A stretch of 54,940 bases of DNA, taken from the IMG/VR virus record IMGVR_UViG_3300020452_000389, positions 1 through 54,940 of that record; one strand, written 5' to 3'. The first letter of the stretch is position 1. Every line of letters starts with the position of its first letter. The notes under the pieces were generated by a model. The model searched no databases, had not been told where the DNA came from, and worked only from the letters and a program-made list of their open reading frames with translations. This DNA is from a virus (taxonomy: Duplodnaviria > Caudoviricetes). Position numbers and translations under genes: made by a program. Positions 8,232 to 42,562 of the stretch are shown one piece after another.

Positions 8232-10444
8232 TGTATAAGCAAACATTATTAAAAATAGTTAAACCTATTAAACCTAAAGTAATTAAAAGGTTAAATAGAT
8301 ATAAAAAATGGGAATATGGATACAATAAAGAGTATGATATCGTCGTTATATCAAAAACTGGTGAAATTGGTGAAATATATGAAATCCAAAATCTTAGGAT
8401 AGCTTTACCTAAAAAATCAAAAGATGTAGTAAAGTTTAAAGATAATAAATGGGAGAGAACACCATTACCTACAGCTTTTAAACATATTAAAACTATATTT
8501 GACTGGGAAGAATACGATGTAGATTTTAAAGAAACATGGTATGATTACATTGATAAAGAGTTTGATTACAGAGAAAAAGGATTTTGGTTTATTAATAAAG
8601 ACAAACCTACTTATATTACTGGGACTCATTACATGTACTTGCAGTGGTCCAAGATTGATGTTGGGAAACCAGATTTTAGGGAGTCAAACAGATTATTCTT
8701 TATATTCTGGGAAGCTTGTAAAGCCGACGATAGATCATATGGGATTTGTTATCTTAAAAACAGACGATCTGGTTTTTCGTTCATGGCCTCAGGTGAAACT
8801 GTTAACAGCGCAACAATTTCAACAGACTCAAGATTTGGAATATTATCTAAATCAGGACCTGACGCTAAAACGATGTTTACTGACAAAGTCGTACCAATCT
8901 CGGTTAATTACCCGTTTTTCTTTAAACCAATCCAAGATGGTATGGACCGTCCCAAAACAGAATTAGCATATAGAGTTCCTGCAAGTAAATTTACTAGAAG
9001 AAAACTTGAAACTAATGAAACACTTAGAGAGTTAACAGGGTTGGACACAACTGTTGATTGGAAAAACACAGGAGATAACTCTTATGATGGTGAAAAATTA
9101 AAACTATTAGTACATGATGAGAGTGGTAAATGGGAAAGGCCAAATAATATATTAAATAATTGGCGAGTTACTAAAACAACACTACGATTAGGTAGTAAAA
9201 TTATTGGTAAATGTATGATGGGTAGTACCTCTAATGCATTAGATAAAGGAGGAGATAATTTTAAAAAACTTTATTATGACTCGGATGTCACTAAAAGAAA
9301 CGCCAATGGACAGACTCGCTCGGGATTATATTCTTTGTTCATACCTATGGAATGGAACTACGAAGGATACATTGATTCTTATGGCATACCTGTCTTCAAT
9401 ACACCGGAAAAACCCGTGGAAGACCCGCATGGTATTAAAATAAATTTAGGTGTTATAGAGTATTGGCAAAATGAAGTAGATGGATTAAAAGGAGATCAAG
9501 ACGGTTTAAATGAATTTTATAGACAATTTCCAAGAACTGAAGAACATGCTTTTAGAGATGAGGCAAAATCTTCTTTATTTAATTTAACTAAAATTTACGA
9601 ACAAATAGATTGGAACTCTGATATTAACAATAGTAATGTAATAACACAGGGTAATTTTCAATGGGTAAATGGAGTAAAAGATACCACGGTGATTTTTAAC
9701 CCTACAAATAATGGTAGATTTTTTATATCTTGGGTTCCAGAAGTACATTTACAAAATAATGTAATTTCTAAAAATGGTAAAAAATATCCTGGTAATGAGC
9801 ATATGGGTGCTTTTGGTTGTGACAGTTATGATATATCAGGTACTGTAGATAAAAGAGGATCGAATGGATCTTTACACGGTTTAACTAAATTTAGTATGGA
9901 AAATCACCCTGCTAATCATTTTTTTCTTGAATATATAGCTAGACCTGCAACAGCAGAAATATTTTTTGAAGATGTTTTAATGGCTTGTATTTTTTATGGT
10001 ATGCCAATACTTGCAGAAAATAATAAACCTAGATTATTATATTATTTTAAAAGAAGAGGATATAGAGGTTATTCTATGAACAGACCAGATAAAATATATA
10101 ATAAATTGTCTGTAACAGAAAGAGAAATAGGTGGTATACCTAATTCAAGTGAAGATATAAAACAAGCTCATGCTGCTGCTATAGAATCTTATATACAAGA
10201 TTTTATTGGTCTAAAACCTAATAACGATTATGGTGATTTATATTTTCAAAGAACATTACAGGATTGGGCTAAATTTAATATAAACAATAGAACAATGCAC
10301 GATGCTTCCATTAGTTCAGGGCTAGCTATTATGGCTTGTAATAAAAATAAATATAGACCTATACCTAAACAAGCTTTAGTTAATTATGATTTAGGTATAA
10401 AAAAGTATGATAATAAAGGGGATATTTCAAAAATAATACAATAA
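8231..10444 (+). CDS. terL: Terminase large subunit
   Basis: Walker A-like KNRRSGFS, Walker B LLVHDESGK, nuclease FGCDSYD and HDASIS; directly upstream of portal. Confidence 0.9.
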   Translation: MYKQTLLKIVKPIKPKVIKRLNRYKKWEYGYNKEYDIVVISKTGEIGEIYEIQNLRIALPKKSKDVVKFKDNKWERTPLPTAFKHIKTIFDWEEYDVDFKETWYDYIDKEFDYREKGFWFINKDKPTYITGTHYMYLQWSKIDVGKPDFRESNRLFFIFWEACKADDRSYGICYLKNRRSGFSFMASGETVNSATISTDSRFGILSKSGPDAKTMFTDKVVPISVNYPFFFKPIQDGMDRPKTELAYRVPASKFTRRKLETNETLRELTGLDTTVDWKNTGDNSYDGEKLKLLVHDESGKWERPNNILNNWRVTKTTLRLGSKIIGKCMMGSTSNALDKGGDNFKKLYYDSDVTKRNANGQTRSGLYSLFIPMEWNYEGYIDSYGIPVFNTPEKPVEDPHGIKINLGVIEYWQNEVDGLKGDQDGLNEFYRQFPRTEEHAFRDEAKSSLFNLTKIYEQIDWNSDINNSNVITQGNFQWVNGVKDTTVIFNPTNNGRFFISWVPEVHLQNNVISKNGKKYPGNEHMGAFGCDSYDISGTVDKRGSNGSLHGLTKFSMENHPANHFFLEYIARPATAEIFFEDVLMACIFYGMPILAENNKPRLLYYFKRRGYRGYSMNRPDKIYNKLSVTEREIGGIPNSSEDIKQAHAAAIESYIQDFIGLKPNNDYGDLYFQRTLQDWAKFNINNRTMHDASISSGLAIMACNKNKYRPIPKQALVNYDLGIKKYDNKGDISKIIQ
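8541..8966 (+). CDS. Candidate overprinted +1-frame gene inside terL (lipoprotein-like)
   Basis: 141 open codons; terL third positions locally G/C-rich; LLILLGLITC. Confidence 0.45.
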   Translation: MITLIKSLITEKKDFGLLIKTNLLILLGLITCTCSGPRLMLGNQILGSQTDYSLYSGKLVKPTIDHMGFVILKTDDLVFRSWPQVKLLTAQQFQQTQDLEYYLNQDLTLKRCLLTKSYQSRLITRFSLNQSKMVWTVPKQN

Positions 10445-12853: not shown

Positions 12854-12877
12854 TTACTAATTTTATAATATTATATC

Positions 12878-14113
12878 ATGTCAGAAGAAACAAAAACAAA
12901 TAAACCTGTTAAACAGGAAGGTGACTTTAAATTAAAAACAAAGAAAAAGACACCTAAAAAACTTGGTGAAATTAATAACGATCCAATTAAAGTAGATTTA
13001 ACAAAACCAGAGGCTACTGGAGAAATAGTTCCAGAAGTTACAAAGGTTACAATACCTAAAGAAGATGCCATTTCAGAGCCAGAAACAGGAGGATTACTTG
13101 AAGATAAACAAACCGGAGATATACAAGAGGTGGATAAAGAAGTACGGTCCAGCGAAAATGTGGAAGTACAAGAACCCAAAGAAGAAGATTCTGTCGTTGA
13201 AATCCAAGAAATAACTGAAGAACAAGAGGTTAAAGAAATTAAACAAGATATTGCTGAAGCTAAAAGAGACGAGCAAGTACTTGGTAAACCTTTACCTGAA
13301 AATATAGAAAAACTAGTGACTTTTATGGAAGACACTGGTGGTACGGTAGAAGATTATGTGAGATTAAATCATGATTATAGTAAAACAGATGATGTATCCT
13401 TACTTAATGAATACTACAAACAAACAAAACCTCATTTAAATAGTGAAGAAATTTCTTTCTTAATGGAAGATAATTTTAATTATGACGAAGAGGTTGACGA
13501 AGCTAGAGATGTAAGAAAGAAGAAACTAGCTTTTAAAGAAGAAGTTGCAAAAGCCCGTAAGGAACTAGAAACTCTTAAAGATAAATATTACCAGGAAATC
13601 AAGTTGAGACCTGGTATATCTCAAGAGCAAAAGAAAGCTATGGACTTTTTCAATAGATACAATGAGCAACAAAAGACGATGGAAAACAACCATCAGGATT
13701 TTAAAACTAAAACTAATCAATTGTTTAATAATGAATTTCAAGGGTTTGATTTCAACGTTGGACAAAAAAAGTTTAGATATAAAGTTTCTAATCCTACACA
13801 AGTTGGTGAAACACAAACCGATATTAGTAAATTTATTAATAAATATACTGATGAAAAAGGTATTGTTTCCGATACACATGGTTATCACAAAGCGTTATAT
13901 GCTGCTATGAATGCTGATAAAATTGCTAATCATTTTTATGAACAAGGGAAAGCTGATGGTGTAAAAACTATAGTTGACAGTTCTAAGAATATCGCAGGTG
14001 AAAAACCTAGGCAAGTTGCCGATGGTAACGTTTTCATAAACGGATTAAAAGTAAGATCGATTAGTGGATTAGATTCAACAAAATTAAAAATAAAAACAAA
14101 AAAATTTAACTAA
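12878..14113 (+). CDS. Capsid scaffolding protein
   Basis: Acidic disordered N-terminal half and helical C-terminal half; immediately upstream of the capsid gene. Confidence 0.7.
   Translation: MSEETKTNKPVKQEGDFKLKTKKKTPKKLGEINNDPIKVDLTKPEATGEIVPEVTKVTIPKEDAISEPETGGLLEDKQTGDIQEVDKEVRSSENVEVQEPKEEDSVVEIQEITEEQEVKEIKQDIAEAKRDEQVLGKPLPENIEKLVTFMEDTGGTVEDYVRLNHDYSKTDDVSLLNEYYKQTKPHLNSEEISFLMEDNFNYDEEVDEARDVRKKKLAFKEEVAKARKELETLKDKYYQEIKLRPGISQEQKKAMDFFNRYNEQQKTMENNHQDFKTKTNQLFNNEFQGFDFNVGQKKFRYKVSNPTQVGETQTDISKFINKYTDEKGIVSDTHGYHKALYAAMNADKIANHFYEQGKADGVKTIVDSSKNIAGEKPRQVADGNVFINGLKVRSISGLDSTKLKIKTKKFN
13065..13214 (+). CDS. Overprinted small basic protein of MPFxSxKQ...PEI.KRW type, in the +1 frame of the scaffold gene
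   Basis: MPFQSQKQEDYLKINKPEIYKRWIKKYGPAKMWKYKNPKKKILSLKSKK*. Confidence 0.7.
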   Translation: MPFQSQKQEDYLKINKPEIYKRWIKKYGPAKMWKYKNPKKKILSLKSKK

Positions 14114-14132
14114 CTAATTAAAAATTAAAATT

Positions 14133-27115: not shown

Positions 27116-30100
27116 ATGGAAGTATATATAGTAGACGGTAGAGAACTTACTTTAGAACAGTTCGAAGCTTTAGCAAAAGAAGCTGGTTTGAGTACCGAAA
27201 AATATAAAGCTTTATACAACGTAGAAGTAAAGCAAGACCCCAATGCTCTGGATGCGGCTGCGGGAGAGGACAAAGCATCCTGGGAATCACAATTGGCAAA
27301 TTTACGATCGGAATACAGAAAAACTTGGGGAGATAAATTTTGGATGCCAGAAGATACTCCTGACGTTACTTCAGGAAGAGGTGAAATGCGAAAGCGTGAA
27401 GTAAAAAGAATTGAATTTACTAAAGCCGAGAAAGAGTTAGTTAATAAAATTAAATCTTACAATGAAAATCCAAATAATATAGATTTTGCTGATTGGCAAA
27501 CTGTTATTAATCAAGGTGAAGATGCTATTAAGTCATATTTAGCTCAGGAATTTCCTTTTTTAAGAGCAAAAGATGGCACTATAGGTAACGCTATAAAAGT
27601 ACAATTAGCTAACGGAGAATTTAAAGAAATTGATTTAAAACCTATATTTAGTGGTCAAAAAAAACAAGCTATAGAGGTTATAAAAGAAATAAACGCAACT
27701 AAAGAAGAATATAATAATAGAGAAATTATTCAAGCTAATATGAATAATTTAGCGGGTAGTATAGAAAGATCTGGTAATGTTAACGCTGTTAACGCTTTGT
27801 TAAAAGACAATACTCCTTATCAACTTGAACAAATAACAGAAAAATACGATGAATTTGCAGCATCTGATATTAAATCATACAATGTATATAAAAATGGGGA
27901 GCTTATAAGCACTCAATTACCTATAACTAAGGTTGATGATTTTTTAAGGGAAAATATTACAAAGGTAGAGTTTGATAATATGGTTACAACTTCTGTAAAA
28001 GCTATAGATGAAATGGCTGCTTTACAAAGAGCTTATATAGAAAGAGAATCTCAAGTTATAGAAGAAAAACCAGAAACTAAAGTAAAGTATTATAAAAAAA
28101 ATTATCAAAACGATGTATTGGATTTGGTAAAATCTTTAGGGGATTTTAGCCAAGAAGAATTAGACGAAATAGAAGCATACATAACAAGAACTCAAAGACA
28201 ACAATTTCCAACTGGAACATTGACGTCTAGAGGATATATTCCTAATACAAATACAGGTTTATCACCTGATGAAATAATAAGACAACTTACATCTTTAGAA
28301 GGTTTATCTGCGGATATTAAAAACAAGTTGGTACAACGAGGTTTTATTAATGAAATGAAAGAAAAAGTTTCTAATGGTATAAGCAACATTGCATTACAAG
28401 AAGCTAAAGAAGGTTCTAAAACTTTATTACAAAACGCTCTTACTGATATAGATAAAAACTATTTATTAGATTTAGCAAATTATCATAATGATAATACGTT
28501 AAATAAAAGAAAAAAAATAAATTTAGAAAATTTAGGTGGTCTTGAAAATGATGACACTAAAGAATTACTTACAATAGCAGGATCAATTAAAGGTACTGAT
28601 CTTGTATTGAGAAAAAGAAATTTTGAAAAAGATAATAAAAACGCAGTAAAAGCTTGGGAGGATTTTTATAATCCAAAACTTGAAACAATACAAAAAGAAT
28701 TTGCAAATTTACTTAATCAACTACCACCAACAGTTAGTGTAGAAAGTAGTGAAACACCCTCAGGACCTTTATTTAAAATAGATAGTACAAAAGATTTAGG
28801 TGATACTGAAAACAAAAGAGTAAATAATTTAATAAATAAAATTACGGCTTTACAAAGTACATATCATAACTTAGTATTTGACGCTAATAAATCTAAAGAA
28901 AAAATTATAAACAATTATAGCGCTTTTAATGCTCAATTGGCAGAGTATACTAAAAGCGATTATATAATAGACGAAGCTAATAAAGAATATGGTTTATTTA
29001 ATTTAGTTACTAAAGATGTTAATGATGCTTTTTCTCAATTGTTTTTAACTGTACCTACTTTGCTTAATTCAGATTGGGCTATTAGAAGAGAGAAACAGTT
29101 AAAAGATAAAAACAATTATTATAAAGAAATGGTTGATCCAGAGTTTAGTTTAGAATATATAACTAGAACTTTAGGTCAACAGTCAGCTAATATTACTATG
29201 GCTATAGGAATAGCTGGGTTAGGTTCAATACCTGCTTTAGGTTTAAGTGATATTGCTATTAGTAATGCAATAGGGGTTAGCTTTGGTTTAAGCTCTGGTA
29301 CTCAAACTTTTAGAGATTTAAGTATTCAAAGAGATGCTGCTGAAGAAGCGAAGCTACTAGCAGTCAGATATAAAGAAGCATTTGATGCTGGTGAAATAAG
29401 TGAGTACAACTACACTATAGCTATGAGAGATATAAATACTACTATAGCTATGGGTAAGTTAGATGATAATCAAATATTAAACGCATCTATTGCTAATGGT
29501 ATAATAGAGGGAACACTTACTAAATACATAGGTACAGCTTCAAACAGTATAGCTTTAGTTAAAAACTTTACTCAAGTTGATCGAGCTACTATTGCAAAAA
29601 CTTTATTCCAAGGTAATCCTACAAAATTTTATGAATTTATAGGTAAACCTTTAGTCACTAGAACAGGATTAGAGGTTGTAGAAGAAGAACTTATATTTGG
29701 TGGTCAACAGTTTGTTACTGAAGCTGGTATTTTAGGTAGAGATATAGATAGAGAAAAGTTTTTAAAAGGAGCTAATGATACTTTTTGGGCCACAGTGGTT
29801 ACCGCGGGTATGTCACAATCTACCGGTATAGTTTACAGCGGTATGAACGCTTATGGTATAACAAAAAAATATGAAAAAGTTATAAACAAAAGCAAGCTTG
29901 TTTTAAACGATATATCAGCATCTATACAAAACCTTGCGAAAGGAGATGAAGGGACAAAAAATAGTTTACTGCTTGGTATGTTTGAGGAATTAAAATCTAT
30001 GGGATTAGCTATTGATCAAAATTCTATAGATCTTTTAAACTTAAGTAAAGAAAATAAAAACGGAGAGTCTGATTTAAAAACATTAATAGGAACACAATTA

Positions 30101-33100
30101 GTTAAGCAAGATTATTTAAGAAGTTTAGGTATTGAAGGTGGAACAAAAGCAGAACAAGAATCAGCTTTAGAAGCGTACAAAGCTACGCTAACTGAAGGTC
30201 AATTAAAAAATTTAAATGATACATTAAATGCTTTTGATACTCAAATAAATAATATAAAAGAAAAAGCTAGTAAAGCTTCTAACTACGATGTAGCAAAAGA
30301 AGCGTTAGGTAATATTTATACTATTTATGATGAATCGCTTAAAAATGATACAGAATATAAAGCTGCTAACACACAAGGTAAACTTGTAAAAATAATAAAC
30401 GCTTTAAGAGAGGACATGCGTCTACAGAATATTGAAAACGCTAAATCAAATCCTTCCATTGTTGAACAAGTAGAGAATATGCCGTTTGCTCCATTTACAA
30501 AAGAAGGAGCTGAACAACAAAGAGATAAAATTTATGAGAAGCTTGGTAATGAAATGGCTTTACAAGAAAGTAGAGGATTTAGTACTCAATTAAATGTAAA
30601 TAGACAGGCTAGTTTATTAATAGGTGGTGATTTAAAATCAGTTAATGTTGTAAGTTATAAAAATGATGAAGAGCTTAAAGATAGATTAGAAGCTGTTGGC
30701 TTAAAGAAAGGTAGTCCGGATTTTATGGAAGCTTTTAATAAGCTAAAACAAGGAAAAGTTTTTGGGCTTGTGTTTGGTAAAACTATTATAACACAAAATG
30801 AAGATGCTGTAAAAGCAGATCTTGAAGCTGGAGTTATTAGAGCTGGTACAGTTGTGTTACATGAACTTACACATATTATTAAAGATGCTCAAATGAAATC
30901 TCCTGAATCAAAAAAGAAATATTTTGATAATCTATTTTTAGCAGCATCGACAAGTAATAATTTAGCGTTAAAAAGTATACATGATCAGACCGTGAATATG
31001 ATGAATAGATTATACGGTGATAAAGAAGGTGAAAATAAATTAAAATGGCAAGATGAATATACTATATTCTTGCAAGAGCAATTGTATGCTTATGAAGATT
31101 TTGTTCAAATAGAAACAGATGATAGCTTTCTTACAAAAATATTTAATAGAACAAACCCAGCTAATTTAAATACACCTGAAAAAGCTTTAAATTATTTAGC
31201 AGCTAGCAATGCTGCTTTTAGAAGAGGTAAAATTTCTAGATCTACAAAAAAAGCTGTAGAACGTTTTGAAGGAACCAACATCAAAGAATCTGGTAGAGAT
31301 ATAAATGATTTAGCTAGAGATTATAAAACTTTACCTGTTGATCAAAGAGCTAGTTTTTTATTAGACACTGATTTTTATAGACAATACCTTAACACTTCTT
31401 TAGCGGCAATGGGCTTTAATATTAACAAAGGTGATATAGCTACTGAACAAGCAGAAGGTTTTGCTGTTGATGCTTTTGATAGAGTAACAAAAAGTTATAA
31501 ACCAGAAGATGGTTCGTTTACTAACTGGATATATTCAACTGTGGGTAGAGAAGGTAGAGCTAAAATAGGAGAGGAAATAGAAAGAAAGAAAAAGTTAGTA
31601 CGTCAAAGTCAAGCTCAAGAACAAACTAGATTAGTTGCTAAAGAAACCGCAGAAGACGCTGTAAGCTTAGAAGAAAGAAAAAAAGCAGAAGGTACAGGTA
31701 GAACACTAGTAGATCCTAGAAAATTACCAGGAGTACCTTCAAACATTGACAATATAGTAGAAATAAATAAAGACGATGTTGTAATAAATCCTGAATCAAG
31801 ATCTTATACAACAGATTTTAGAAGTATATCAGATCAATATGGTCCTAAGGTAGCAGGTGAAATTTATGGTATAAACCCTAGTAAACTTAAAAAAGGTGCT
31901 GATCTTACATATGGTCAGAATAAAGTAGTTGATGGTAGAAAAGTAAGTTCTGAAGCTGAAAAAATACAAAGCGAGTTTACCAATGCTCAAAACGTTAAGA
32001 AGTTTATTTCTTTATTTCCTGAATTTAATATAAGTACACCTACAGCTGTAACTACACAACAAGGTCAAGAAACTAAAGTTGATAAAGATGTGCAGGGTAG
32101 ATCATTAGGTATTGCCCCTAGTGTACAAAACTATTTTTATGAAAATTACGTTGACCCTAGATCTTTAAATAAAGAAACTAAAAAAGATGCTATAACAAAT
32201 CCTAAAGGAAGATCTAAAGGTACTACTAGTCAAACGCAAGTAAAAAGATTAAAGCCTGAATTTAGAGGCACCATATCTAATGAGACTATTAAAAAGCTAC
32301 AGAATGATTTAGGTATAACTGCAAAAGGTGAATTTAACGTTCCACCAAAAGGTAAAGCAAGAACTGAGTTTGGTAGACTACTTATAGGTTTAGCAAACTT
32401 AAAAGGTGCTATTGTAGCTAATACTGTTGTAGATCAAAAGATACAATCACTTATTAAGAAAGGTGAAATTAAATCTGTTAGAACTCCAGAACAAATCACA
32501 GCAAGCACAAGAGCTGGTAGAAGTAAAATACAGTATAGTGAAAAAGCTCCTTCTGAGTATGTTGTTTCTTTAATGCAAAAACTAAGGGTGTTAAATAAAG
32601 AAAGCGGTACTAAAAAAGCTACACGAGAAGGTGAATTTTTAACTAGAGGTATACAGCAAACAAGACTAAGTGACGGTACAGAAAAAACTATAATAGATAG
32701 AGATAAATATTTATCTGATGAAGTTGCTGCGTTTAAAGGAGAAATGTTTTTAGAAGGTATGACAAGGGTGATAAATGATTTCTTAAAAACATATCCTGAA
32801 TTTAGAAACTTTTTTAAACAGGCTACTGTGTTTGGAATGGATAGATCTGCGTTTGGTGTTGCACCGCTTTATAATAAAAATATTTCTACTACTAAAAGTA
32901 AACAAGCTAATGTTAACAGAGAGTCAATGACTTCTAATAAAAAGTTAACAAACGCTTATGTAAATGAAATTGAAAACAATACAAAAAGTTATGTAGCTAA
33001 ACAAAAAGATAAAATACAAGTGCTATATGATTTTGCTAAAGCAGTTGAATCTTATTTAGAACAAGAGACTGAAGTAGAAATAGATGGTAAAATTAAAAAA

Positions 33101-36100
33101 GTAAAAGCTAATAAAAAAAATGCATGGGTATTTGATGAAATTAGAGCTGAAGCAACTAACTCTCAACAATCTCCATTTAGAACATTATTCCCTGTTTATT
33201 TAGTTGAAGTAGATTTTCAAGGTAAACCACTCAGAAATGTTAAAGGTACAGAAGAGCATTCAACTCCTCAAAACCAAATAGGAACGTTGTTAATTCAAGC
33301 TGCAATTGATCAGAAAGTAGATGAAGTTTTTCCTATTGTAAAAGCTTTAGCTATGCAAGGTTGGTTATCAGATGATGTAGATAATAAGCTTAACGAAGAT
33401 TATAGTAAATCTATGCCTTACAATTTGCTTAAAACAGGTATAGAGCTTTACAACAAAGGTGAATTAAAATTACCTGATGGTACTTTAGCTGCTATAAGAA
33501 TGAGTGAATCAGATGTTGATCTTAGTTTTCAAATGTATATTCCAACAGGTCAAACTTTATCTCAAATATTTTTTGGCACTGAAGATGTTAAACTAGTAGA
33601 TCAAAAACAATTAATGAGAGACTTGTTTAGCGGAAAAAGAACTCAAGCAGAAGTAAAACAAGAAGCTAAAAGATTAGTTAAAATACAACAAAAAGTAGAT
33701 GAAACTTTTAAACCTGAAGCACCTGTAGCTATAGATAGAAACAATACGGCTGATAAAGCTATGGCTGATGCTAGAAACAGTGTTAAATATAAAGAGTCTA
33801 GAAAAGGTATTAGTGTGTTTGATTTTGATGATACACTAGCTCAATCAAATAGTAAAGTTCTTTACACTATGCCTGATGGAACAACAGGTTCTCTTACGGC
33901 AGGTGAATTTGCATTAGAAGCATCGGGGTTAACTGAGTTAGGTGCTGAGTTTGATTTCAGTGAATTTAACGAAGTTAAAGAAGGTAGAAAAGGTCCATTA
34001 GCAGATCTTGCTTTAAGACGTCAAGAAAAATTTGGCAGCCAAGATATATTTGTATTAACAGCTAGGCCTCAAGCGTCAGCTATAAATATTAAACAATTTT
34101 TAGATGAAATTGGTTTAAATATACCTTTAGCAAATATAACTGGTTTAGCTGATGGAAGACCAGAAGCTAAAGCTAATTGGATGATTGAGAAATATGCTGA
34201 TGGTTATAATGATTTTTATTTTGCAGATGATGCTTTTAAAAATGTAGAAGCAGTTCAAAATGTATTTGATGTATTAGATGTTAAATCTAAAGTGCAACAA
34301 GCAAGGGTTAAGTTTAGCGAAAAACTAGATAAAGATTTTAACGACATGATCGAAAGAAACATGGGCGTTCCATCTGAAGCAACATACTCAGATATTGTTG
34401 CAAGAAGAATGGGTAAAAATCAAAAAAGATTTGCATTTTTTATTCCACCTTCAGCAGATGACTTTAGAGGTTTAACAATGTACACATTTGCTGGTAAAGG
34501 GAAGCAAGGTGAAGCTGATCAAGAGTTTTTTAATAAAGCATTAATAAAACCTTATATGGCTGGTGTTAACGCTATGAACTTGTCTAAAAATAGAGTTAAA
34601 AACGCTTATAAAGTTTTACAACAAACTAGTCCTGAAGTTAGAAAAAAATTAAACAAAAAAATTGGTGGTACTAAATACACTCATGATGCAGCTATAAGAA
34701 TTTATTTATGGAGTAAAGATGGAACTAAAATACCAGGTTTATCTAAACGAGACCAGGAACAAATAGTAAAATTAGTAGAAGCTGATACAGATTTAGTAGC
34801 TTATGCTGAAGGAGTAAAACTAATTACTAAACAAGATGTTTATCTTCCACCATCTGAATTTTGGGATGGTACTACTATAATAGGAGATTTATCTAAATTA
34901 ACTAAAGATGTTAAAAGAGAAGAGTATTTAAAAGATTTTTCGCGTAACGTTGATATTATATTTAGTCCTAAAAATTTAAATAAAGTAGAAGCTATTTATG
35001 GTTTTAGAGTAAGAGAAGCTTTAGAAAATATTATATACCGAATGAAAACAGGTAGTAATAGAAAGGCTGGTGCTGATAGAATTGTAACAGCATGGAATGA
35101 TTGGACTAACAGATCTGTTGGTGCTATAATGTTCTTTAATAGAAGATCAGCATTGTTACAGATGTTATCTGCTGGTAACTTTGTTAATTGGTCAGATAAT
35201 AATCCATTAAAAGCAGCGGCTGCATTTGCCAATCAACCTCAATACTGGAAAGATGTAGTTTATCTTTTTAATTCTCCTAAATTAAAAGCTAGAAGATCTG
35301 GTTTAGAAGGAGACATTAATGAAGCAGAAATAGCACAAGCTTCTAAAAAAGGTGGTATGGAAGGTGTGTTATCTTATTTATTAAAAATAGGTTTTACACC
35401 TACTCAAATAGCAGATAGTATAGCTATATCTACAGGTGGTGCATCGTTTTATAGAAATAGAATTAACACATATAAAAAACAAGGATATACCACTGAAGAC
35501 GCAGAGAAAAAAGCTTTTGAGGATTTTTCAGCTATATCAGATGAGACACAACAGTCAGCAGATCCAATGTTAATATCTATGCAACAAGCAGGTACTATGG
35601 GTAGATTAGTATTAGCATTTCAAAACACGCCAATGCAGTATACTCGTTTAATGAAAAAAGCTGGTCAAGATATTATAAATGGAAGAGGAGATTTTAAAAC
35701 TAATTTTTCTAAAATATTATATTACGGGTTTATACAAAACTTAATTTTCTCTACATTACAAAATGCTATGTTTGCTTTATTACCTGGATTTGAAGATGAA
35801 GAAGAACCTGATTTTAAAACAGATAAAGAAAAGGAAGAGTGGTTAGCTAAACAAGATAACAAAATGGACAATAAAACAACTAGAGTAGTTAACAACATGT
35901 TAGATACTTTACTAAGAGGATCTGGTTTAGCTGGAGCTGTTGTTGCTACAACTAAAAATGTTATCATGGAATATAACGATCGTCAAGATATGACTATTTT
36001 AGAAAAATCTAGAAACAACGCTGACTTATTAATAGCTTTATCTAGTATATCACCTCCAATAAGTTCTAAGTTAAGAAAAATAAATAATGCTTTAAATCTT

Positions 36101-36586
36101 GAAGACTTTGAAAGAGATATAATAGCAGAAAGAGGTTTTAGTGTTACTATTGATGGTAAGTTTCAGTTAAGCCCACAATACCAAGTTGTAGGTGAGGTTG
36201 CTTCTGGTTTATTTAATTTACCTTTAGATAGGGTATTTAACGAGGTTAATTCTATTACAGAAGCTTTAGATGAAAGGAATAGTGCTTACCAAAGAATAGC
36301 ACTAGCGTTAGGTTGGAAAACGTGGGATGTAGGAGCTAAGATTGAAGAGCATGAATTAATAAAAACCCTAGCAAAAGAGAAAAGAAAAAAGGAAGGAATA
36401 GAAAAAGGAAAGCAAACTAGAAAAACTAATAAAGAATTAGAAAAAGAGCACGAAAGACTTAGAAGAAGTATTATATTTAAACTACCTAAACCCATAAAAG
36501 ATAGTTTAATAAAAAAAGAAAGAGAAGACAAAAAGATAACTGCAATTTATAAGTTAAATCAATTGAAAGCTAAATACTTAGAATAA
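27116..36586 (+). CDS. Giant internal virion (polyvalent) protein, 3156 aa
   Basis: HELTH zincin motif, sigma-region-2-like segment, complete HAD motif set, helical C-terminal region. Confidence 0.8.
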   Translation: MEVYIVDGRELTLEQFEALAKEAGLSTEKYKALYNVEVKQDPNALDAAAGEDKASWESQLANLRSEYRKTWGDKFWMPEDTPDVTSGRGEMRKREVKRIEFTKAEKELVNKIKSYNENPNNIDFADWQTVINQGEDAIKSYLAQEFPFLRAKDGTIGNAIKVQLANGEFKEIDLKPIFSGQKKQAIEVIKEINATKEEYNNREIIQANMNNLAGSIERSGNVNAVNALLKDNTPYQLEQITEKYDEFAASDIKSYNVYKNGELISTQLPITKVDDFLRENITKVEFDNMVTTSVKAIDEMAALQRAYIERESQVIEEKPETKVKYYKKNYQNDVLDLVKSLGDFSQEELDEIEAYITRTQRQQFPTGTLTSRGYIPNTNTGLSPDEIIRQLTSLEGLSADIKNKLVQRGFINEMKEKVSNGISNIALQEAKEGSKTLLQNALTDIDKNYLLDLANYHNDNTLNKRKKINLENLGGLENDDTKELLTIAGSIKGTDLVLRKRNFEKDNKNAVKAWEDFYNPKLETIQKEFANLLNQLPPTVSVESSETPSGPLFKIDSTKDLGDTENKRVNNLINKITALQSTYHNLVFDANKSKEKIINNYSAFNAQLAEYTKSDYIIDEANKEYGLFNLVTKDVNDAFSQLFLTVPTLLNSDWAIRREKQLKDKNNYYKEMVDPEFSLEYITRTLGQQSANITMAIGIAGLGSIPALGLSDIAISNAIGVSFGLSSGTQTFRDLSIQRDAAEEAKLLAVRYKEAFDAGEISEYNYTIAMRDINTTIAMGKLDDNQILNASIANGIIEGTLTKYIGTASNSIALVKNFTQVDRATIAKTLFQGNPTKFYEFIGKPLVTRTGLEVVEEELIFGGQQFVTEAGILGRDIDREKFLKGANDTFWATVVTAGMSQSTGIVYSGMNAYGITKKYEKVINKSKLVLNDISASIQNLAKGDEGTKNSLLLGMFEELKSMGLAIDQNSIDLLNLSKENKNGESDLKTLIGTQLVKQDYLRSLGIEGGTKAEQESALEAYKATLTEGQLKNLNDTLNAFDTQINNIKEKASKASNYDVAKEALGNIYTIYDESLKNDTEYKAANTQGKLVKIINALREDMRLQNIENAKSNPSIVEQVENMPFAPFTKEGAEQQRDKIYEKLGNEMALQESRGFSTQLNVNRQASLLIGGDLKSVNVVSYKNDEELKDRLEAVGLKKGSPDFMEAFNKLKQGKVFGLVFGKTIITQNEDAVKADLEAGVIRAGTVVLHELTHIIKDAQMKSPESKKKYFDNLFLAASTSNNLALKSIHDQTVNMMNRLYGDKEGENKLKWQDEYTIFLQEQLYAYEDFVQIETDDSFLTKIFNRTNPANLNTPEKALNYLAASNAAFRRGKISRSTKKAVERFEGTNIKESGRDINDLARDYKTLPVDQRASFLLDTDFYRQYLNTSLAAMGFNINKGDIATEQAEGFAVDAFDRVTKSYKPEDGSFTNWIYSTVGREGRAKIGEEIERKKKLVRQSQAQEQTRLVAKETAEDAVSLEERKKAEGTGRTLVDPRKLPGVPSNIDNIVEINKDDVVINPESRSYTTDFRSISDQYGPKVAGEIYGINPSKLKKGADLTYGQNKVVDGRKVSSEAEKIQSEFTNAQNVKKFISLFPEFNISTPTAVTTQQGQETKVDKDVQGRSLGIAPSVQNYFYENYVDPRSLNKETKKDAITNPKGRSKGTTSQTQVKRLKPEFRGTISNETIKKLQNDLGITAKGEFNVPPKGKARTEFGRLLIGLANLKGAIVANTVVDQKIQSLIKKGEIKSVRTPEQITASTRAGRSKIQYSEKAPSEYVVSLMQKLRVLNKESGTKKATREGEFLTRGIQQTRLSDGTEKTIIDRDKYLSDEVAAFKGEMFLEGMTRVINDFLKTYPEFRNFFKQATVFGMDRSAFGVAPLYNKNISTTKSKQANVNRESMTSNKKLTNAYVNEIENNTKSYVAKQKDKIQVLYDFAKAVESYLEQETEVEIDGKIKKVKANKKNAWVFDEIRAEATNSQQSPFRTLFPVYLVEVDFQGKPLRNVKGTEEHSTPQNQIGTLLIQAAIDQKVDEVFPIVKALAMQGWLSDDVDNKLNEDYSKSMPYNLLKTGIELYNKGELKLPDGTLAAIRMSESDVDLSFQMYIPTGQTLSQIFFGTEDVKLVDQKQLMRDLFSGKRTQAEVKQEAKRLVKIQQKVDETFKPEAPVAIDRNNTADKAMADARNSVKYKESRKGISVFDFDDTLAQSNSKVLYTMPDGTTGSLTAGEFALEASGLTELGAEFDFSEFNEVKEGRKGPLADLALRRQEKFGSQDIFVLTARPQASAINIKQFLDEIGLNIPLANITGLADGRPEAKANWMIEKYADGYNDFYFADDAFKNVEAVQNVFDVLDVKSKVQQARVKFSEKLDKDFNDMIERNMGVPSEATYSDIVARRMGKNQKRFAFFIPPSADDFRGLTMYTFAGKGKQGEADQEFFNKALIKPYMAGVNAMNLSKNRVKNAYKVLQQTSPEVRKKLNKKIGGTKYTHDAAIRIYLWSKDGTKIPGLSKRDQEQIVKLVEADTDLVAYAEGVKLITKQDVYLPPSEFWDGTTIIGDLSKLTKDVKREEYLKDFSRNVDIIFSPKNLNKVEAIYGFRVREALENIIYRMKTGSNRKAGADRIVTAWNDWTNRSVGAIMFFNRRSALLQMLSAGNFVNWSDNNPLKAAAAFANQPQYWKDVVYLFNSPKLKARRSGLEGDINEAEIAQASKKGGMEGVLSYLLKIGFTPTQIADSIAISTGGASFYRNRINTYKKQGYTTEDAEKKAFEDFSAISDETQQSADPMLISMQQAGTMGRLVLAFQNTPMQYTRLMKKAGQDIINGRGDFKTNFSKILYYGFIQNLIFSTLQNAMFALLPGFEDEEEPDFKTDKEKEEWLAKQDNKMDNKTTRVVNNMLDTLLRGSGLAGAVVATTKNVIMEYNDRQDMTILEKSRNNADLLIALSSISPPISSKLRKINNALNLEDFERDIIAERGFSVTIDGKFQLSPQYQVVGEVASGLFNLPLDRVFNEVNSITEALDERNSAYQRIALALGWKTWDVGAKIEEHELIKTLAKEKRKKEGIEKGKQTRKTNKELEKEHERLRRSIIFKLPKPIKDSLIKKEREDKKITAIYKLNQLKAKYLE

Positions 36587-36587
36587 T

Positions 36588-37555: not shown

Positions 37556-37566
37556 AATTAAAAAAA

Positions 37567-37929: not shown

Positions 37930-37930
37930 A

Positions 37931-38382: not shown

Positions 38383-38705
38383 AAAATTTAATTACAATTA
38401 TATTATTAATGTTTGCTTTTACAGCAACAGCACAAGATTTAACTTTACTACACGTTAATGCAAAATGGAATCAATCAAATGATTTTGATTTAAGAGGTAT
38501 TAAACATGCTAAAGTAATAATGGCAAGATTAGAGGATCAAAGTGAGAGCTTGAGAGCTAGCATTAAGTCGGTTCCTACTGTTGTTTTATTAGATAAGAAT
38601 GGTAAACCTAAAGGCCAATGGGCTGCAGGTTTAAATTTTAAATTAAACATAGAGAAAGAAGTAATTCAAAATAGAATTAATTTCTTATTGTTTCAAGATA
38701 AATAG
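38379..38705 (+). CDS. Exported thioredoxin-fold protein lacking CxxC
   Basis: Signal peptide; HVNAKWNQSN at the WCxxC position; IKSVPTVVLLD cis-Pro loop. Confidence 0.6.
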   Translation: MKNLITIILLMFAFTATAQDLTLLHVNAKWNQSNDFDLRGIKHAKVIMARLEDQSESLRASIKSVPTVVLLDKNGKPKGQWAAGLNFKLNIEKEVIQNRINFLLFQDK

Positions 38706-38749
38706 GAACAAAAAAAAATAGGCGTACCATACCTAAAGTTCCTGTAACT

Positions 38750-38783
38750 AAGAAGGGGATCTCATTTGAGGTCCCCTTCTTTA
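38750..38783. terminator. Strong hairpin at the convergence of the two arms (probably a bidirectional terminator)
   Basis: AAGAAGGGGATCTC-ATTT-GAGGTCCCCTTCTT. Confidence 0.85.
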
Positions 38784-38845
38784 TTATAACTAACTCCCAC
38801 CAACCACTCATTTCCTTCGTTAGTGATCAACCTAACGAACGTTAG

Positions 38846-40567
38846 TTATCCGTCGCAGCTAAGACAGCTGTCGTCCATTGCTTGTTCAGCAATATCTCCA
38901 CGTAACACCGACTCAGTTCTAGTATAATATAAGGTTTTAATACCTTTTTTCCAAGCTTCAAAATGTACTTTATTAATCCATTTAGGTGTTGCTACACTAG
39001 GGAATGCTAGATTTAAACTAACTGACTGATCGATATACTGTTGTCTAATACCTGCTTGGTTTATTAATTCTAATTGATTAATTTCTTTGAAAGTTTTGAA
39101 GACTTCTTTGATTTGTATACCGTGAGGACCTAATATAATTTTGTCTAATGCTTTTATTCCCTGTATAGACCCTCCGTCTTTTAGTATTTGATTCCATATT
39201 TTTTCGTTATCAAGCTTATGTTTTCTTAAGATTTTTTTGAGCGTTGGGTTTTTTCTGATGAAGGTACCCTTAGCGGATTGCTCAGTGAAAACATTAGCCG
39301 CCCATGGCTCAATACCCGGGCTGACATTTCCACTAAGCTTAGAGTTAGAGACAGTAGGAGCAATAGCGCGTAGATGGGTATTACGTAAACCAGTACCGAC
39401 ACACCAAAGAGGTTCTCCAAAAGTTTCTGCCAAAGCTCGTGAAGCTCGTTCAGATTCGATTTTAATTTGACTAAATATTTTTCTTGTTTCATATTGTGAT
39501 AATAATCCTTCAAAAGGTAAACTTTTTTCTTGTAGGTATGTATGCCAACCAAGAACTCCTAATCCTAAAGCTCTACCTTTTTCAGCAGATCTAACAGAAT
39601 TATGAAATCCAACTTTACCTTTTGATTTTTGTATAAATTCTTCTAATACGCCATCTAAAAACCAAGTGGCGTCATATATTAAATTGGTTCCTTTCCATTC
39701 GTCATACTTAGCTAAGTTTAACGAGGATAAACAACAAACAAAGCTATGAGATTCATCTGTATGTAATGTAATCTCAGAACATATGTTTGTCATATGTACT
39801 TTTAATCCATGCTTTTTGTAAGCTGATGGATTACTTTTGTTTGTATTGCCTTTAAATAAGATATAAGGCTCTCCAGTTGCTTTACGCTTTTGTAATAACT
39901 TTCCCCATAGTCTTCTAGCATCTTTATCTCCAGTTTCAACTCTTCGCATAAACTTATCGCCGACCACAGCGCACTGGTGTAAGTTGAGCGATTGACGATT
40001 AACGTCTCCTTTAGGTTCTCGTATTTCGAGCCACTCTTCAAAATCGGGGTGCTCAATATTAATGTTAACGCTTGCAGCTCCTCTTCGGACAGATCCTTGA
40101 TTAGTGGCAAGTATTGTGCTATCGTAAATTTTACAAAACGGCACAGTTCCATCAGATGTTCCATTACCTTTAATTGTTGCTCCGGCAGGACGAATTTGAT
40201 TAACACCTATACCAACTCCCCCACCGTGTTTTGCTAATAACATCATTTCTAAATTTTTATTGCCGATATCATAAATACTATCTGCAACATCGATGCCAAA
40301 ACAGGATATTGGTAAACCTCTATCTGTGCCTGTATTAGACAACACAGGAGAGGCTAAACATAGCCAACCTTTCCATATATATTCAAAGAAAGTTTTAGCT
40401 AATTCTGGACGTTCTAAACGTCTCGCAACGTGATGACAAACACGCTTATAAGCTTCTTTAGGTGTTTCATCGTTATATAAATAACCACCACCTATTGTTT
40501 TTTTATATACATCGGTATCACCCCAAGTAGGATAATCAACTCCTTTTTTCCAGTCTTTATTCCACAT
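38846..40567 (-). CDS. nrdA: Ribonucleotide reductase class I alpha subunit (no ATP cone)
   Basis: PISCF, TNICSEI, VCCLSSLNL, AIAPT, KTLYY, C-terminal CLSC. Confidence 0.95.
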   Translation of the reverse strand: MWNKDWKKGVDYPTWGDTDVYKKTIGGGYLYNDETPKEAYKRVCHHVARRLERPELAKTFFEYIWKGWLCLASPVLSNTGTDRGLPISCFGIDVADSIYDIGNKNLEMMLLAKHGGGVGIGVNQIRPAGATIKGNGTSDGTVPFCKIYDSTILATNQGSVRRGAASVNINIEHPDFEEWLEIREPKGDVNRQSLNLHQCAVVGDKFMRRVETGDKDARRLWGKLLQKRKATGEPYILFKGNTNKSNPSAYKKHGLKVHMTNICSEITLHTDESHSFVCCLSSLNLAKYDEWKGTNLIYDATWFLDGVLEEFIQKSKGKVGFHNSVRSAEKGRALGLGVLGWHTYLQEKSLPFEGLLSQYETRKIFSQIKIESERASRALAETFGEPLWCVGTGLRNTHLRAIAPTVSNSKLSGNVSPGIEPWAANVFTEQSAKGTFIRKNPTLKKILRKHKLDNEKIWNQILKDGGSIQGIKALDKIILGPHGIQIKEVFKTFKEINQLELINQAGIRQQYIDQSVSLNLAFPSVATPKWINKVHFEAWKKGIKTLYYTRTESVLRGDIAEQAMDDSCLSCDG

Positions 40568-40784
40568 CTGTTTCAAACTTTTTTTCTGGTTTGTTTTTTT
40601 CTTCTAATGTTTTTATTTTTTCTACAAGCTTTTTCCATTTGGTTTTTCCTATATACAGTTGGAAGGCTGTTAGAGTTCCTTCAGATAAACCCGCATTTAT
40701 TTGAACCTCATTAATTAAAGCTTGTACAACTTTAGTTAACGACTCTATTTTTTTTTCCATTAAAATTAATTTATTTTCTTTCAT
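40557..40784 (-). CDS. Hypothetical protein
   Basis: 75-aa ORF overlapping both neighbours. Confidence 0.7.
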   Translation of the reverse strand: MKENKLILMEKKIESLTKVVQALINEVQINAGLSEGTLTAFQLYIGKTKWKKLVEKIKTLEEKNKPEKKFETDVE

Positions 40785-41334
40785 ATTTATAAAACATTAC
40801 TATTACTATTCTTTGATCTTTGTATTCATTAGGATATTTGCTATGAAAATAATTACACGGGTATGATAATAACCTATTACCCTTATAACCTATAATAGAA
40901 TTTAATTTCCATTTACTTTTATCATTAGCATCTTCTTTTAGCATACGGTTAAACTCTTTTGTGTTAGACTCTATGTAAGTATGCCCATAATTTTCGTGTT
41001 CCCAAAAAGCTGTTCCGTGTAATTTATCCTCATTAGCTTTAAGAAATAAAACCACCGCTCTATCTGGTTGTTGTCCTTCTATTATAGTATCATTATGTAT
41101 ACGCCATGTGTTGTCTTGATTCTCTTTAGCTTCTCTTGCAAAACATAATATATTTTTAATTTTTTTACCTTCAATTTTTTGTAATGACTTTTCTATATAG
41201 TTTACAAATGTGACAGGTAGTTCTTTGATCCAAAAAGATTTACCAGGTGTTTTAACTTCTTTAAATTCATCACAGTATTTTAATACTTCTTTATATAATG
41301 CATCAGGTAAAAAATTATCTTTTATATATATCAT
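40771..41334 (-). CDS. 2OG-Fe(II) oxygenase superfamily protein
   Basis: IHND (HxD), AVVLFL, GTAFW, NRLLSY...FHS, C-terminal RIVIVMF. Confidence 0.75.
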   Translation of the reverse strand: MIYIKDNFLPDALYKEVLKYCDEFKEVKTPGKSFWIKELPVTFVNYIEKSLQKIEGKKIKNILCFAREAKENQDNTWRIHNDTIIEGQQPDRAVVLFLKANEDKLHGTAFWEHENYGHTYIESNTKEFNRMLKEDANDKSKWKLNSIIGYKGNRLLSYPCNYFHSKYPNEYKDQRIVIVMFYKYERK

Positions 41335-41576
41335 GATATTAAATGTTTGATCCAAGCAAATAAACCGTTTATATTTAATGCTACTAAATTCCATTGTTTA
41401 CGCGCTGCTGTTTGTACCATTACGCAAATAAACCCTGCAATATATAATTTAGGTTCTATAGTCCATTGCGCTGCAACTAAAAAGCCAGCACCCATATAAC
41501 CAATACGAGTGGACATTTTTTCAACAGGTGTTAACCTTTTAGTTGTTGCAATTATTTTTAGTAACTTTCTATTCAT
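41331..41576 (-). CDS. Small three-TM membrane protein
   Basis: Three short hydrophobic segments; QWNLVALN. Confidence 0.65.
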   Translation of the reverse strand: MNRKLLKIIATTKRLTPVEKMSTRIGYMGAGFLVAAQWTIEPKLYIAGFICVMVQTAARKQWNLVALNINGLFAWIKHLIS

Positions 41577-42562
41577 TACCACACATCTTCAAAGTCTTCA
41601 CCCTCATTAGCTTTACTATAATCAGTCGGCCTAATTGCAAAAAAATCTGTATGGGTATGACCACCGGTAAGATGATCAAACCAAGACATATTTTCAATAC
41701 ATTTGGTGTCGTAGAACGTGAAGTCCCATTGCTTATACTTTTTAGTTGTGTAACCCAGCTCCGCAAGCTTGTCACCAACTCTTTTCTTGATAAAATGTTT
41801 AAGATCATATTGTGTTATACCTTCTATATCGCCCATCTCAAATATCTTACTAATGTAAGTCATTTCAGCATTGTGCATTGTTAAGGCTGCTTCAAATATA
41901 TGAGGTTCACATTCGGCTTTTAATCCCGGTATTTGTGAACACATATGTCTAAATAGTTGGCAACCCATCTTACTATGTAGACTTTCATCTCTTACAGACC
42001 ATTTCATCTGTTGCCCGATACCCTTAAGTAAATTACGCATTTGAAAAGAATAAAGGACTGCAAAAGCGGAATATAGAGAAACTCCTTCTGCGAAAGCAGA
42101 AAAAGTAGCCAATGACTTTCCGATACCCACGGGATCATTGCCATCATATGCAACGAGATTGTCAAAACGAGCAGCCGTAGCTGGTTCATGTAAAAATGCT
42201 TCGTAATCTTCGAGTCCAAGTGTTTCATTTAAATAACTATAAGCTACAGCGTGTATTGTTTCTTGTGAGCCGAACATCATAGCCATTTGCTGTATCTCAT
42301 GTTTAGGAAACCATGATACGACTTTCTGTGTCCAATAATCAGACACTGCACATTCTGTTTGTGCAAAACCTAATAATATATTACCTACTAAGTTTTTTTC
42401 TTCTGGAGTTAATTTTTCATTCCAGTCTTTTACATCACCACTCATTGGTATTTCAGTATGCAACCAAAATGCTTGGGCTTGTTTTAACCAACCTTCTGTA
42501 TAATACTCAGGGTATTCAAAAGGCTTATAAGGTATTCTTTCTGTAAATAATGGTATTGCCAT
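41576..42562 (-). CDS. nrdB: Ribonucleotide reductase class I beta subunit
   Basis: QTECAV, QETIHAVAY, AEGVSLYSAF, RDESLH. Confidence 0.95.
   Translation of the reverse strand: MAIPLFTERIPYKPFEYPEYYTEGWLKQAQAFWLHTEIPMSGDVKDWNEKLTPEEKNLVGNILLGFAQTECAVSDYWTQKVVSWFPKHEIQQMAMMFGSQETIHAVAYSYLNETLGLEDYEAFLHEPATAARFDNLVAYDGNDPVGIGKSLATFSAFAEGVSLYSAFAVLYSFQMRNLLKGIGQQMKWSVRDESLHSKMGCQLFRHMCSQIPGLKAECEPHIFEAALTMHNAEMTYISKIFEMGDIEGITQYDLKHFIKKRVGDKLAELGYTTKKYKQWDFTFYDTKCIENMSWFDHLTGGHTHTDFFAIRPTDYSKANEGEDFEDVW

Follow-up and report, generated by a model that had tools for sequence, protein, structure and literature searches.

Probable nested +1 genes in a handful of core genes of an uncultured marine podophage related to Flavobacterium phages

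Gene Rz1 of phage lambda lies inside gene Rz, and the lysis genes of small phages are likewise nested. Here we describe small open reading frames (ORFs) placed on the same strand as, and in the +1 frame of, a few core genes of the viral sequence held in IMG/VR as record IMGVR_UViG_3300020452_000389, whose whole length of 54,940 bases is called the window below. The host genes code for the large terminase (terL), a putative scaffold protein, the two ribonucleotide-reductase subunits (nrdA and nrdB) and a primase-helicase. The likeness to Rz1 is that of a small same-strand +1 ORF, wholly inside a longer gene and with its own start. The difference lies in the hosts, which are enzymes and a scaffold gene, in the presence of several such ORFs per genome, and in the longer terL ORF having no lipobox. 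Overprinted genes and the statistics for their detection have been described for small viruses and phages (PMC8227390, PMC6188560); they share with the present cases an ORF length exceeding that of shuffled sequences, an atypical composition and a lowered level of synonymous change in the older of the two frames, but they come mostly from small RNA or single-stranded DNA genomes under size pressure, whereas here the genome is double-stranded DNA of ~55-65 kb compared with ~100 metagenomic relatives. Long overlapping genes of bacteria such as Pseudomonas aeruginosa include embedded ORFs argued to be under purifying selection (PMC8850804); those are antisense and accompanied by ribosome profiling, while ours are same-strand, shifted by +1 and known from sequence alone. 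The closest known counterpart of one of our ORFs, that of the scaffold gene, is the small-protein family phrog_1375, which begins M-P-F-K-S, includes gene 48 of Streptomyces phage FlowerPower and aligns with it, although gene 48 is free-standing and the ORF here is nested in the scaffold frame. Among the full texts reached by our literature search, as far as their content was accessible, no paper described nested ORFs in terL or nrdA. Nested and overprinted genes are an already known kind, of which these ORFs would be further examples.

We favour, with a probability of about 0.75, the reading that the window and its relatives carry a handful of conserved nested +1 genes restricted to a few host genes, and not a layer extending over the genome. 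We take three or four of the ORFs, at the least, to be real nested genes, and a further one to three to be probable ones. A few genes would thus carry a second same-strand coding frame shifted by +1, each ORF would be translated from its own internal AUG, and the products would act during infection. The window (~31% G+C; completeness of the source record estimated at 85%) has a structural arm reading rightward and a replication arm reading leftward. DNA comparison gave 70 matching phage records with 60-80% identity; 68 belong to Flavobacterium phages, and their matched features are annotated 'portal protein' and 'terminase large subunit'. The window represents the greater part of the genome of a marine podophage that is uncultured and akin to the Flavobacterium phages, with double-stranded DNA of the size given above. 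Gene terL (8231-10444, plus strand, 737 amino acids (aa)) takes its name from the annotation of these records, where it stands beside 'portal protein'. The putative scaffold gene (12878-14113, plus strand; 411 aa, rich in E and K) is positioned between the portal and capsid-like genes. On the minus strand lie nrdA (38846-40576, 576 aa; Pfam PF02867, E 2.8e-93, and PF00317, E 1.4e-10), nrdB (41576-42562, 328 aa; PF00268, E 4.1e-53) and the primase-helicase gene (45327-47057; Toprim/DnaB according to Pfam). Since Pfam returned no family for the window's terL, portal, putative scaffold and capsid-like proteins, the scaffold name is drawn from gene order only.

A sequence-only reading of the window had listed +1 ORFs in terL, the scaffold gene, nrdA and nrdB, and all are present, on the same strand and in the +1 frame of the host. 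In terL these are terL-A (8541-8966, plus strand, 141 aa) and terL-B (9276-9443, plus strand, 55 aa). The scaffold ORF of 49 aa is at 13065-13214 (plus strand). On the minus strand, nrdA contains nrdA-1 (39802-40164, 120 aa from a conserved ATG; 134 aa as a mechanical ORF with a GTG start extending to 40206) and nrdA-2 (39226-39552, 108 aa from a TTG, or 88 aa from an ATG at 39492), and nrdB contains nrdB-mid (42004-42228, 74 aa, hydrophobic) and nrdB-C (41569-41808, 79 aa). An ORF of 75 aa in the primase-helicase gene (46013-46240, minus strand), absent from that list, is added here.

Over 44 genes and 16,040 codons, stops occur at 0.090 per codon in the +1 frame (~1 per 11) and at 0.146 in the +2 frame (~1 per 7), and the longest +2 ORF has 49 aa against 141, 134 and 108 aa in +1. 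Lengths were compared with three null models of 1000 shuffles each, namely synonymous shuffling within the gene, synonymous resampling from genome usage and codon permutation, for which P values are given in this order. The comparison with shuffled codons that the sequence-only reading had proposed places the terL, nrdA and nrdB runs beyond chance. The longest run in terL is 147 codons for a shuffle mean of 63 (P 0.002, 0.001, 0), in nrdA 134 codons for a mean of 56 (P 0 under all three, with 0/1000 within-gene shuffles) and in nrdB 79 codons for a mean of 40 (P 0, again 0/1000, then 0 and 0.041). The scaffold run of 100 codons is marginal (P 0.085, 0.021, 0.007), and gene 24561-25331 has a 67-codon run with P = 0.005 under the within-gene null and 0.169 under genome-wide usage. 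With these two nrd genes, terL and 24561-25331 as exceptions, 40 of the 44 genes have +1 runs inside the nulls (P > 0.02 in all three). Window-wide, four +1 runs reach at least 100 codons against 0.08-0.20 expected across the nulls; under the null expecting 0.17, no shuffle had more than two. The local shift to G/C-ending codons reported in the sequence-only reading is also there, with G+C at third codon positions (GC3) rising from ~0.05-0.20 to 0.30-0.47 exactly across the open stretches, and its caution that the hydrophobic character of such peptides is no evidence holds.

The argument rests mainly on the relatives. Scans of IMG/VR, which holds more than 600 terL relatives, with terL, nrdA, the capsid-like gene and the primase-helicase yielded 320 loci, from which codon alignments were built by tblastn for 30 window genes, with 13-100 sequences each including the window (13-99 relatives). 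The relatives share 73-93% protein identity and are mutually related, so that counts of sequences are not counts of independent events. Observed stops were compared with the expectation from each copy's protein sequence and the codon usage of the gene, in the five alternative frames. Whole-gene ratios of observed to expected stops lie at 0.81-1.24 throughout, except in the +1 frame of nrdA (0.73) and nrdB (0.79). A strict threshold (at least 2.5 stops expected per 40 codons and a ratio of at most 0.2) flags three stretches, all in +1: alignment columns 144-231 of nrdA, stop-free in 93/99 relatives, columns 366-410 of the same gene (95/99) and columns 259-306 of nrdB (83/99). A looser threshold flags 15 stretches, eight of them in +1: terL, nrdA and nrdB contribute a pair each, the primase-helicase gene has one, and the last is minor. 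Five others, in antisense phase 0, mostly coincide with the +1 stretches and are a by-product of the avoidance of TTA and CTA. The portal, capsid-like and remaining genes, 25 outside the named set, show no stop depletion, nor do the +2 and antisense frames.

When synonymous codons were shuffled within each relative's own gene copy (300 shuffles for terL-A), the frames almost never opened. The terL-A core (codons 104-244) is open in 64 of 97 relatives and the nrdA-1 core in 93 of 99, each against a shuffle mean of 0.0 (maximum 1). Corresponding figures are 90/99 against 2.0 (maximum 8) for nrdA-2 (codons 362-421), 23 of 27 gap-free relatives against 0.3 (maximum 2) for nrdB-C (codons 263-327), 58/99 against 1.7 (maximum 6) for nrdB-mid (codons 120-175), 72/77 against 4.4 (maximum 11) for the primase-helicase ORF (codons 301-347) and 73/99 against 12.1 (maximum 23) for terL-B.

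The codons involved point to the cause. A +1 stop is made by a codon ending in TA or TG before a purine. In the seven cores, A-ending Leu, Ile and Val codons have a frequency of 0.019-0.140 before a purine against 0.38-0.65 before a pyrimidine, while outside the cores, over the 30 genes, the values are 0.540 (n=65,458) and 0.622. For codons ending in TG before A, the count is 6 of 954 within the cores and 1426 of 6273 elsewhere. Codon choice for translational accuracy, or any general codon preference of conserved regions, is ruled out as the explanation because the conserved columns of the 25 other genes show no such avoidance (A-ending codons before purines 0.621 in the structural arm, 0.489 in leftward genes), and the preferred codons vary from column to column. 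The +1 frames of terL, nrdA, nrdB and the primase-helicase gene thus appear, on this pattern of codon choice, to be kept open by selection against stop-making codons. Set beside pyrimidine contexts, the conserved-column values are 0.621 before purines and 0.668 before pyrimidines in the structural arm, and 0.489 and 0.644 in the unflagged genes of the replication arm (38846-54449, minus strand). No further discrete open stretch was found in the four leftward genes checked.

The 49-aa scaffold ORF is the best-proven case, although its length is unexceptional and its stop depletion modest (observed/expected 0.47). The part of the putative scaffold gene that contains it is N-terminal and conserved only poorly. 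Its ATG is kept in 68 of 72 sequences, with a length of 36-50 aa in 66 of these 68, and in an alignment of 60 sequences M1, P2, F3, Q8 and W23 are invariant. Family members begin M-P-F-K/Q-S and have a conserved Q and W. Across columns 61-100, identity in the +1 frame (0.66, 0.30, 0.42, 0.37) exceeds that of the host frame (0.49, 0.28, 0.36, 0.24), which happens only there among the first 200 columns tabulated; the host frame, beginning with an ATG at column 1, is itself uninterrupted in every one of the 77 aligned sequences. Family phrog_1375 matches 18 of the 60 relatives of the ORF (best E 5e-6). A profile of the window peptide and 59 relatives retrieves 633 homologues at E<=0.001 in a set of 5.8 billion proteins, with 29-78% BLASTP identity to the window peptide among the 120 homologues listed. 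These are called as hypothetical proteins in many metagenomes and fall in viral clusters of 820, 119 and 53 members. The stand-alone homologue, gene 48 of FlowerPower, has a small 'peptidase' gene on one side and the annotated holin gene on the other; it was reached with a longer homologue, a tblastn search of cultured phages with a 41-aa relative of the scaffold peptide giving no match. The synonymous ratio of 0.44 is unreliable because the region aligns poorly and has indels, and the per-copy shuffle was possible for only eight relatives. Judging from these alignments, the ORF belongs to a widespread family of small viral proteins and would be an old small gene across which the scaffold gene, in its variable N-terminal part, is now read.

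ORF nrdA-1 is distinguished by fixed boundaries. The ATG at nrdA codon 138 is conserved in 99 of 100 sequences, and 93 of 99 relatives combine it with an ORF of 120 aa (81 sequences) or 124 aa (12). One to three +1 stops are found directly ahead of the start, and in 70 of 81 sequences the ORF ends at codon 258. Of 100 sequences, 99, 99 and 96, respectively, retain the host codons AAT-GGA-ACA at the start; for comparison in the same stretch, the codons for Asn 108 split 72:28 and those for Gly 124 split 51:41. Observed/expected +1 stops (0.05) are the lowest of 539 windows of the same length, and codons ending in TA occur at 0.019 before a purine against 0.580 before a pyrimidine. Synonymous constraint amounts to a ratio of 0.73-0.74, for a background of about 0.87-0.92 (median 0.92 in the 30-gene set), and many +1 positions are near-invariant. 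The nrdA of Flavobacterium phage immuto, 61% identical and of similar GC3 (0.21), served as negative control and has many +1 stops in this stretch. AlphaFold2 (AF2), given 56 sequences, models four helices with a mean local confidence (pLDDT) of 74 and a global score (pTM) of 0.67. Fold searches with this model return generic helical bundles: the best Foldseek hit, to Avd, is weak (E 0.19); Avd and 23S-rRNA-IVS four-helix-bundle proteins appear at rank 11 with an atlas score of 0.81, below 0.9; and the best VIA-align Z of 10.4, to unrelated helical repeats, falls under the bar of ~13 for helical bundles. In a set of 1.84 billion representatives, the nrdA-1 profile has 33 matches. Among the best 15, 14 have 116-124 aa, and the best 12 cover nearly the full profile; we read these as calls of the same ORF. 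The remaining matches are partial (30-78 profile positions) and bring in no other family, and so small a number fits a gene born in the lineage. The ORF has a fixed ATG and end, its putative product is predicted to be helical, and it is confined to this phage lineage and, for this reason, probably born by overprinting.

Stops still close the +1 frame immediately ahead of the nrdA-1 ATG, and there nrdA codons 113-130 (~40185-40240, minus strand) form a block of conserved G/C-ending codons (CTC 81, CAC 85, GGC 88 and CCC 88 of 100) with a constraint ratio of 0.68. This block may serve nrdA-1 as promoter or initiation region, or be something else.

In terL, the shorter ORF terL-B (44-71 aa in most relatives) has its ATG at terL codon 348/349 in 83 of 100 sequences, and 81 have a +1 stop ahead of it at codon 337. 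Few sites there could make a stop (1.6 expected), so that stop depletion is a test of little power, and the evidence comes from a synonymous-constraint ratio of 0.59-0.61, among the strongest in the 30-gene set. Rare codons are fixed column by column, with TAT in 100/100 sequences at one Tyr and TAC in 95 at another, TTG in 90 and TTC in 92. The constraint is present in copies with and without terL-A. No conserved RNA structure was found in the terL-B region (-7 kcal/mol, covariation term +0.38), which leaves RNA structure without support as the cause of the constraint.

ORF terL-A has 155-220 aa in most relatives, usually 186-220. The number of +1 stops expected per sequence is 7.0 from codon usage outside the ORF and 4.4 from local usage. 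In the first 81 sequences, codons 104-244 are free of +1 stops in 56, whose local GC3 is 0.33-0.52, while 21 have 2-8 stops, and 18 of these 21 a GC3 of at most 0.24, as in the rest of the gene. In the ORF-bearing copies, ATA, TTA, CTA and GTA are all at 0 before purines and at 0.67, 0.48, 0.02 and 0.71, respectively, before pyrimidines. At specific sites the 66 copies carrying the ORF have fixed host codons that are otherwise rare (TAC in 65, TTG in 57 with CTG in the other nine at this Leu site, CAG in 63, GGG in 58, and TTC), where the 26 copies lacking it use ordinary A/T-ending codons. These codons encode, in +1, a hydrophobic helix followed by the motif C-T-C-S-G. At the start, host TAT is kept in 62 of 65 ORF-bearing copies, and over codons 104-160 (~57 residues) the constraint ratio is 0.65, against 0.92 in copies without the ORF. 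The best supported description, based on these alignments and on prediction, is that about two thirds of the relatives carry an ORF whose putative product consists of a conserved N-terminal hydrophobic helix, a near-invariant Cys-Thr-Cys-Ser-Gly motif and a freely evolving variable tail predicted to be disordered. A lipobox has Gly, Ala or Ser before the lipidated Cys, and genes of the Rz1 type are embedded in or next to the gene of the inner-membrane spanin. In the consensus of 53 terL-A sequences, as in the column counts, both Cys residues follow an Ile or a Thr and the classical lipobox is lacking, and the host gene is terL; the assignment as an Rz1-type lipoprotein spanin was rejected.

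The other ORFs are weaker candidates. The core of nrdA-2 is open and avoids codons ending in TA before purines (0.030), with starts and ends that vary and ORFs of 60-174 aa in relatives. ORF nrdB-C occupies the last 77 codons of nrdB and runs 7 nucleotides past its stop. It would encode one conserved hydrophobic helix; observed/expected +1 stops are 0.02-0.10 over nrdB codons 261-320 in 73 relatives, and codons ending in TA stand before purines at 0.030. Of 100 sequences, 61 have the ATG at codon 263 and 26 have it at codon 252 (87/100 together), and the length is mostly 60-91 aa. The primase-helicase ORF, a moderate candidate from its codon pattern, has codons ending in TA before purines at 0.028, a constraint ratio of 0.86 and an ATG at codon 273 in 30 sequences or 301 in 35. 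We regard nrdB-mid as a weak candidate: the full ORF has an observed/expected value of 0.52 and is stop-free in only 8 of 99 relatives, the constraint ratio is 0.89, and 21 of 100 sequences have no ATG. Where nrdB-C ends, in the last nrdB codons, starts an 83-aa ORF with a GTG start and hydrophobic stretches (41331-41582, minus strand), which overlaps the start of 40771-41394.

Several further ORFs were found not to be conserved, namely a second scaffold ORF of 82 aa (observed/expected 0.80), ORFs in 44439-45083 (0.98) and 51282-52121 (0.76), and one in the primase-helicase gene at 46772-46927 (0.74). The proposal of a genome-wide layer is not supported, as depletion of +1 stops is limited to terL, nrdA, nrdB and the primase-helicase gene among the 30 genes; it is absent for the 82-aa scaffold ORF and those in 44439-45083 and 51282-52121. 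The idea of hidden small proteins missed by gene callers fared better. It is the best reading for the scaffold ORF of 49 aa, nrdA-1 (120 or 134 aa), terL-A in its 141-aa form and terL-B, since the comparison indicates that several ORFs are kept open by selection and that one is a family member; it is plausible for the 79-aa ORF of nrdB, while the 82-aa scaffold ORF and the smaller ones look like chance. Neither family nor fold searches gave a match pointing to the lysis, regulatory or anti-defence roles suggested for the products. Conservation at synonymous sites, suggested earlier as a check, is seen in the N-terminus of terL-A, in terL-B and in nrdA-1, and stays at background in the terL-A tail, nrdA-2, nrdB-mid, nrdB-C and the primase-helicase ORF.

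Elsewhere in the window, the single ORF of 3156 aa at 27116-36586 (plus strand) has a longest +1 run of 57 codons, inside the shuffle null; it and most left-end genes were covered by the single-genome shuffle, which gave no signal there. Long antisense ORFs are located at 12871-13335 (minus strand, 154 aa), 41543-41884 (plus strand, 113 aa) and 1259-1732 (minus strand, 157 aa). For the first two, the relatives show no antisense stop depletion beyond the by-product of TTA and CTA avoidance in nrdB. Rfam has a tRNA as its only match in the window (RF00005, 76.5 bits; 53447-53519, minus strand), inside an ORF of 195 aa with a TTG start (52968-53555, minus strand) that is probably no gene, given the tRNA gene it contains.

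A number of observations weigh against nested genes as the explanation, or narrow it. The window's own terL-A is shortened by a stop at terL codon 245 that no other copy has, and of 100 terL sequences 66 have no +1 stop, 26 two or more and eight one. Copies with and without terL-A (codons 104-300, loci L001-L240) are intermixed in a tree made from the remainder of the gene, with 12 changes where shuffled labels give 22.8, which suggests repeated loss or exchange of segments between lineages. The C-terminal two thirds of terL-A have a ratio of 0.86, equal to background and without sequence constraint, and AF2 reaches a pLDDT of 40 with only the N-terminal helix modelled. Radical replacements (L/Q/R, L/S) are tolerated at many positions of nrdA-1. 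The constraint ratios of nrdA-2 (0.87) and nrdB-C (0.82) are at or near background; in these two ORFs, nrdB-mid and that of the primase-helicase the ends vary among relatives and, apart from the avoidance of stops, synonymous sites are not constrained. The core ranges in the per-copy shuffle and codon-context tests were picked post hoc, which inflates the weaker cases. Searches of Pfam and PHROGs with the +1 peptides of terL, nrdA, nrdB and the primase-helicase gene gave nothing above noise, and phrog_1375 has no match in the window, whose scaffold peptide is too divergent on its own. Four of 24 sequencing runs were compared with the window, and two metatranscriptome libraries, both from one study, contain contigs identical in sequence to parts of nrdA and nrdB, where gaps in coverage carry no weight; contigs of this origin may contain DNA and carry no frame information, and are no certain sign of transcription and no sign of translation.

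Some of these points would suit frames that are open yet non-functional, in which ribosomes, working independently of Shine-Dalgarno sites, start at strong internal AUGs and selection then favours running on over termination within the gene, or a regulatory effect of +1 translation on the host gene, so that only frame length would matter. The terL-A tail, nrdA-2, the nrdB ORFs and that of the primase-helicase agree with this, since they combine stop avoidance with background synonymous variation, variable ends and predicted disorder. We nevertheless find it unlikely: nrdA-1, terL-B and the terL-A N-terminus display column-specific synonymous constraint and fixed rare codons that preserve +1 residues, the scaffold ORF has real homologues, and we know of no mechanism for selection on mere +1 run-on. 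Features acting at the nucleotide level, be they foreign GC-richer patches acquired by recombination or RNA or DNA elements within the genes, seem very improbable. They would account for the local rise in GC3, for the interspersed terL forms with the segment exchange these suggest and for the conserved G/C-ending block upstream of the nrdA-1 ATG, but the depletion affects one frame only. Over the same stretches the +2 and antisense frames have observed/expected values of ~1.0-1.5 (1.0-1.5 for +2, which excludes a simple GC-rich patch). Moreover, codons are avoided solely in the context that makes a stop and A-ending ones stay common before pyrimidines, a test that rules out a GC-rich recombinant patch as the cause and largely refutes nucleotide-level explanations; to this are added the lack of conserved structure in terL-B and an Rfam result limited to a tRNA elsewhere.

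Chance combined with shared ancestry, by which long frames arose once in an ancestor of relatives too close to have lost them, is the least credible alternative. The high protein identity of the relatives speaks for it, as does the fact that sequence counts are not event counts. Yet synonymous differences outside the ORFs are at ~0.9 of their saturation value, so that the copies are close to independent at silent sites; CTT, CTC and TTG interchange freely at critical sites, and per-copy synonymous shuffles almost never open the frame. A handful of conserved nested genes remains the reading we prefer. Their expression from internal starts is plausible, as the three best nested ATGs sit in A-rich contexts and ribosomes of Bacteroidota work without Shine-Dalgarno pairing, according to a study on this subject (PMC7797042).

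A broader reading, which we hold tentatively and at somewhat less than even odds, is that Bacteroidota phages, able to begin translation at internal AUGs with no Shine-Dalgarno site, may for that reason keep a conserved set of five to seven nested +1 genes in their best conserved enzymes, namely the terminase, both ribonucleotide-reductase subunits and the primase-helicase, among them a four-helix protein born de novo in nrdA and a membrane-anchored protein with a Cys motif in terL, and that their products may act at the membrane or against host defences. If so, genes that are hallmarks of phage phylogeny would be dual-coding over hundreds of bases. Dual coding in terL, nrdA and nrdB distorts codon usage, GC3 and synonymous rates in markers used for phage diversity and for the ratio of nonsynonymous to synonymous change (dN/dS), and phage proteomes are under-counted because gene callers skip nested genes. 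The short, defined ORFs with fixed starts are cheap targets for proteomics, ribosome profiling and expression. Close relatives with and without the terL ORF provide a natural experiment, in a phage group where one nested gene has stand-alone homologues and the others look born within the lineage.

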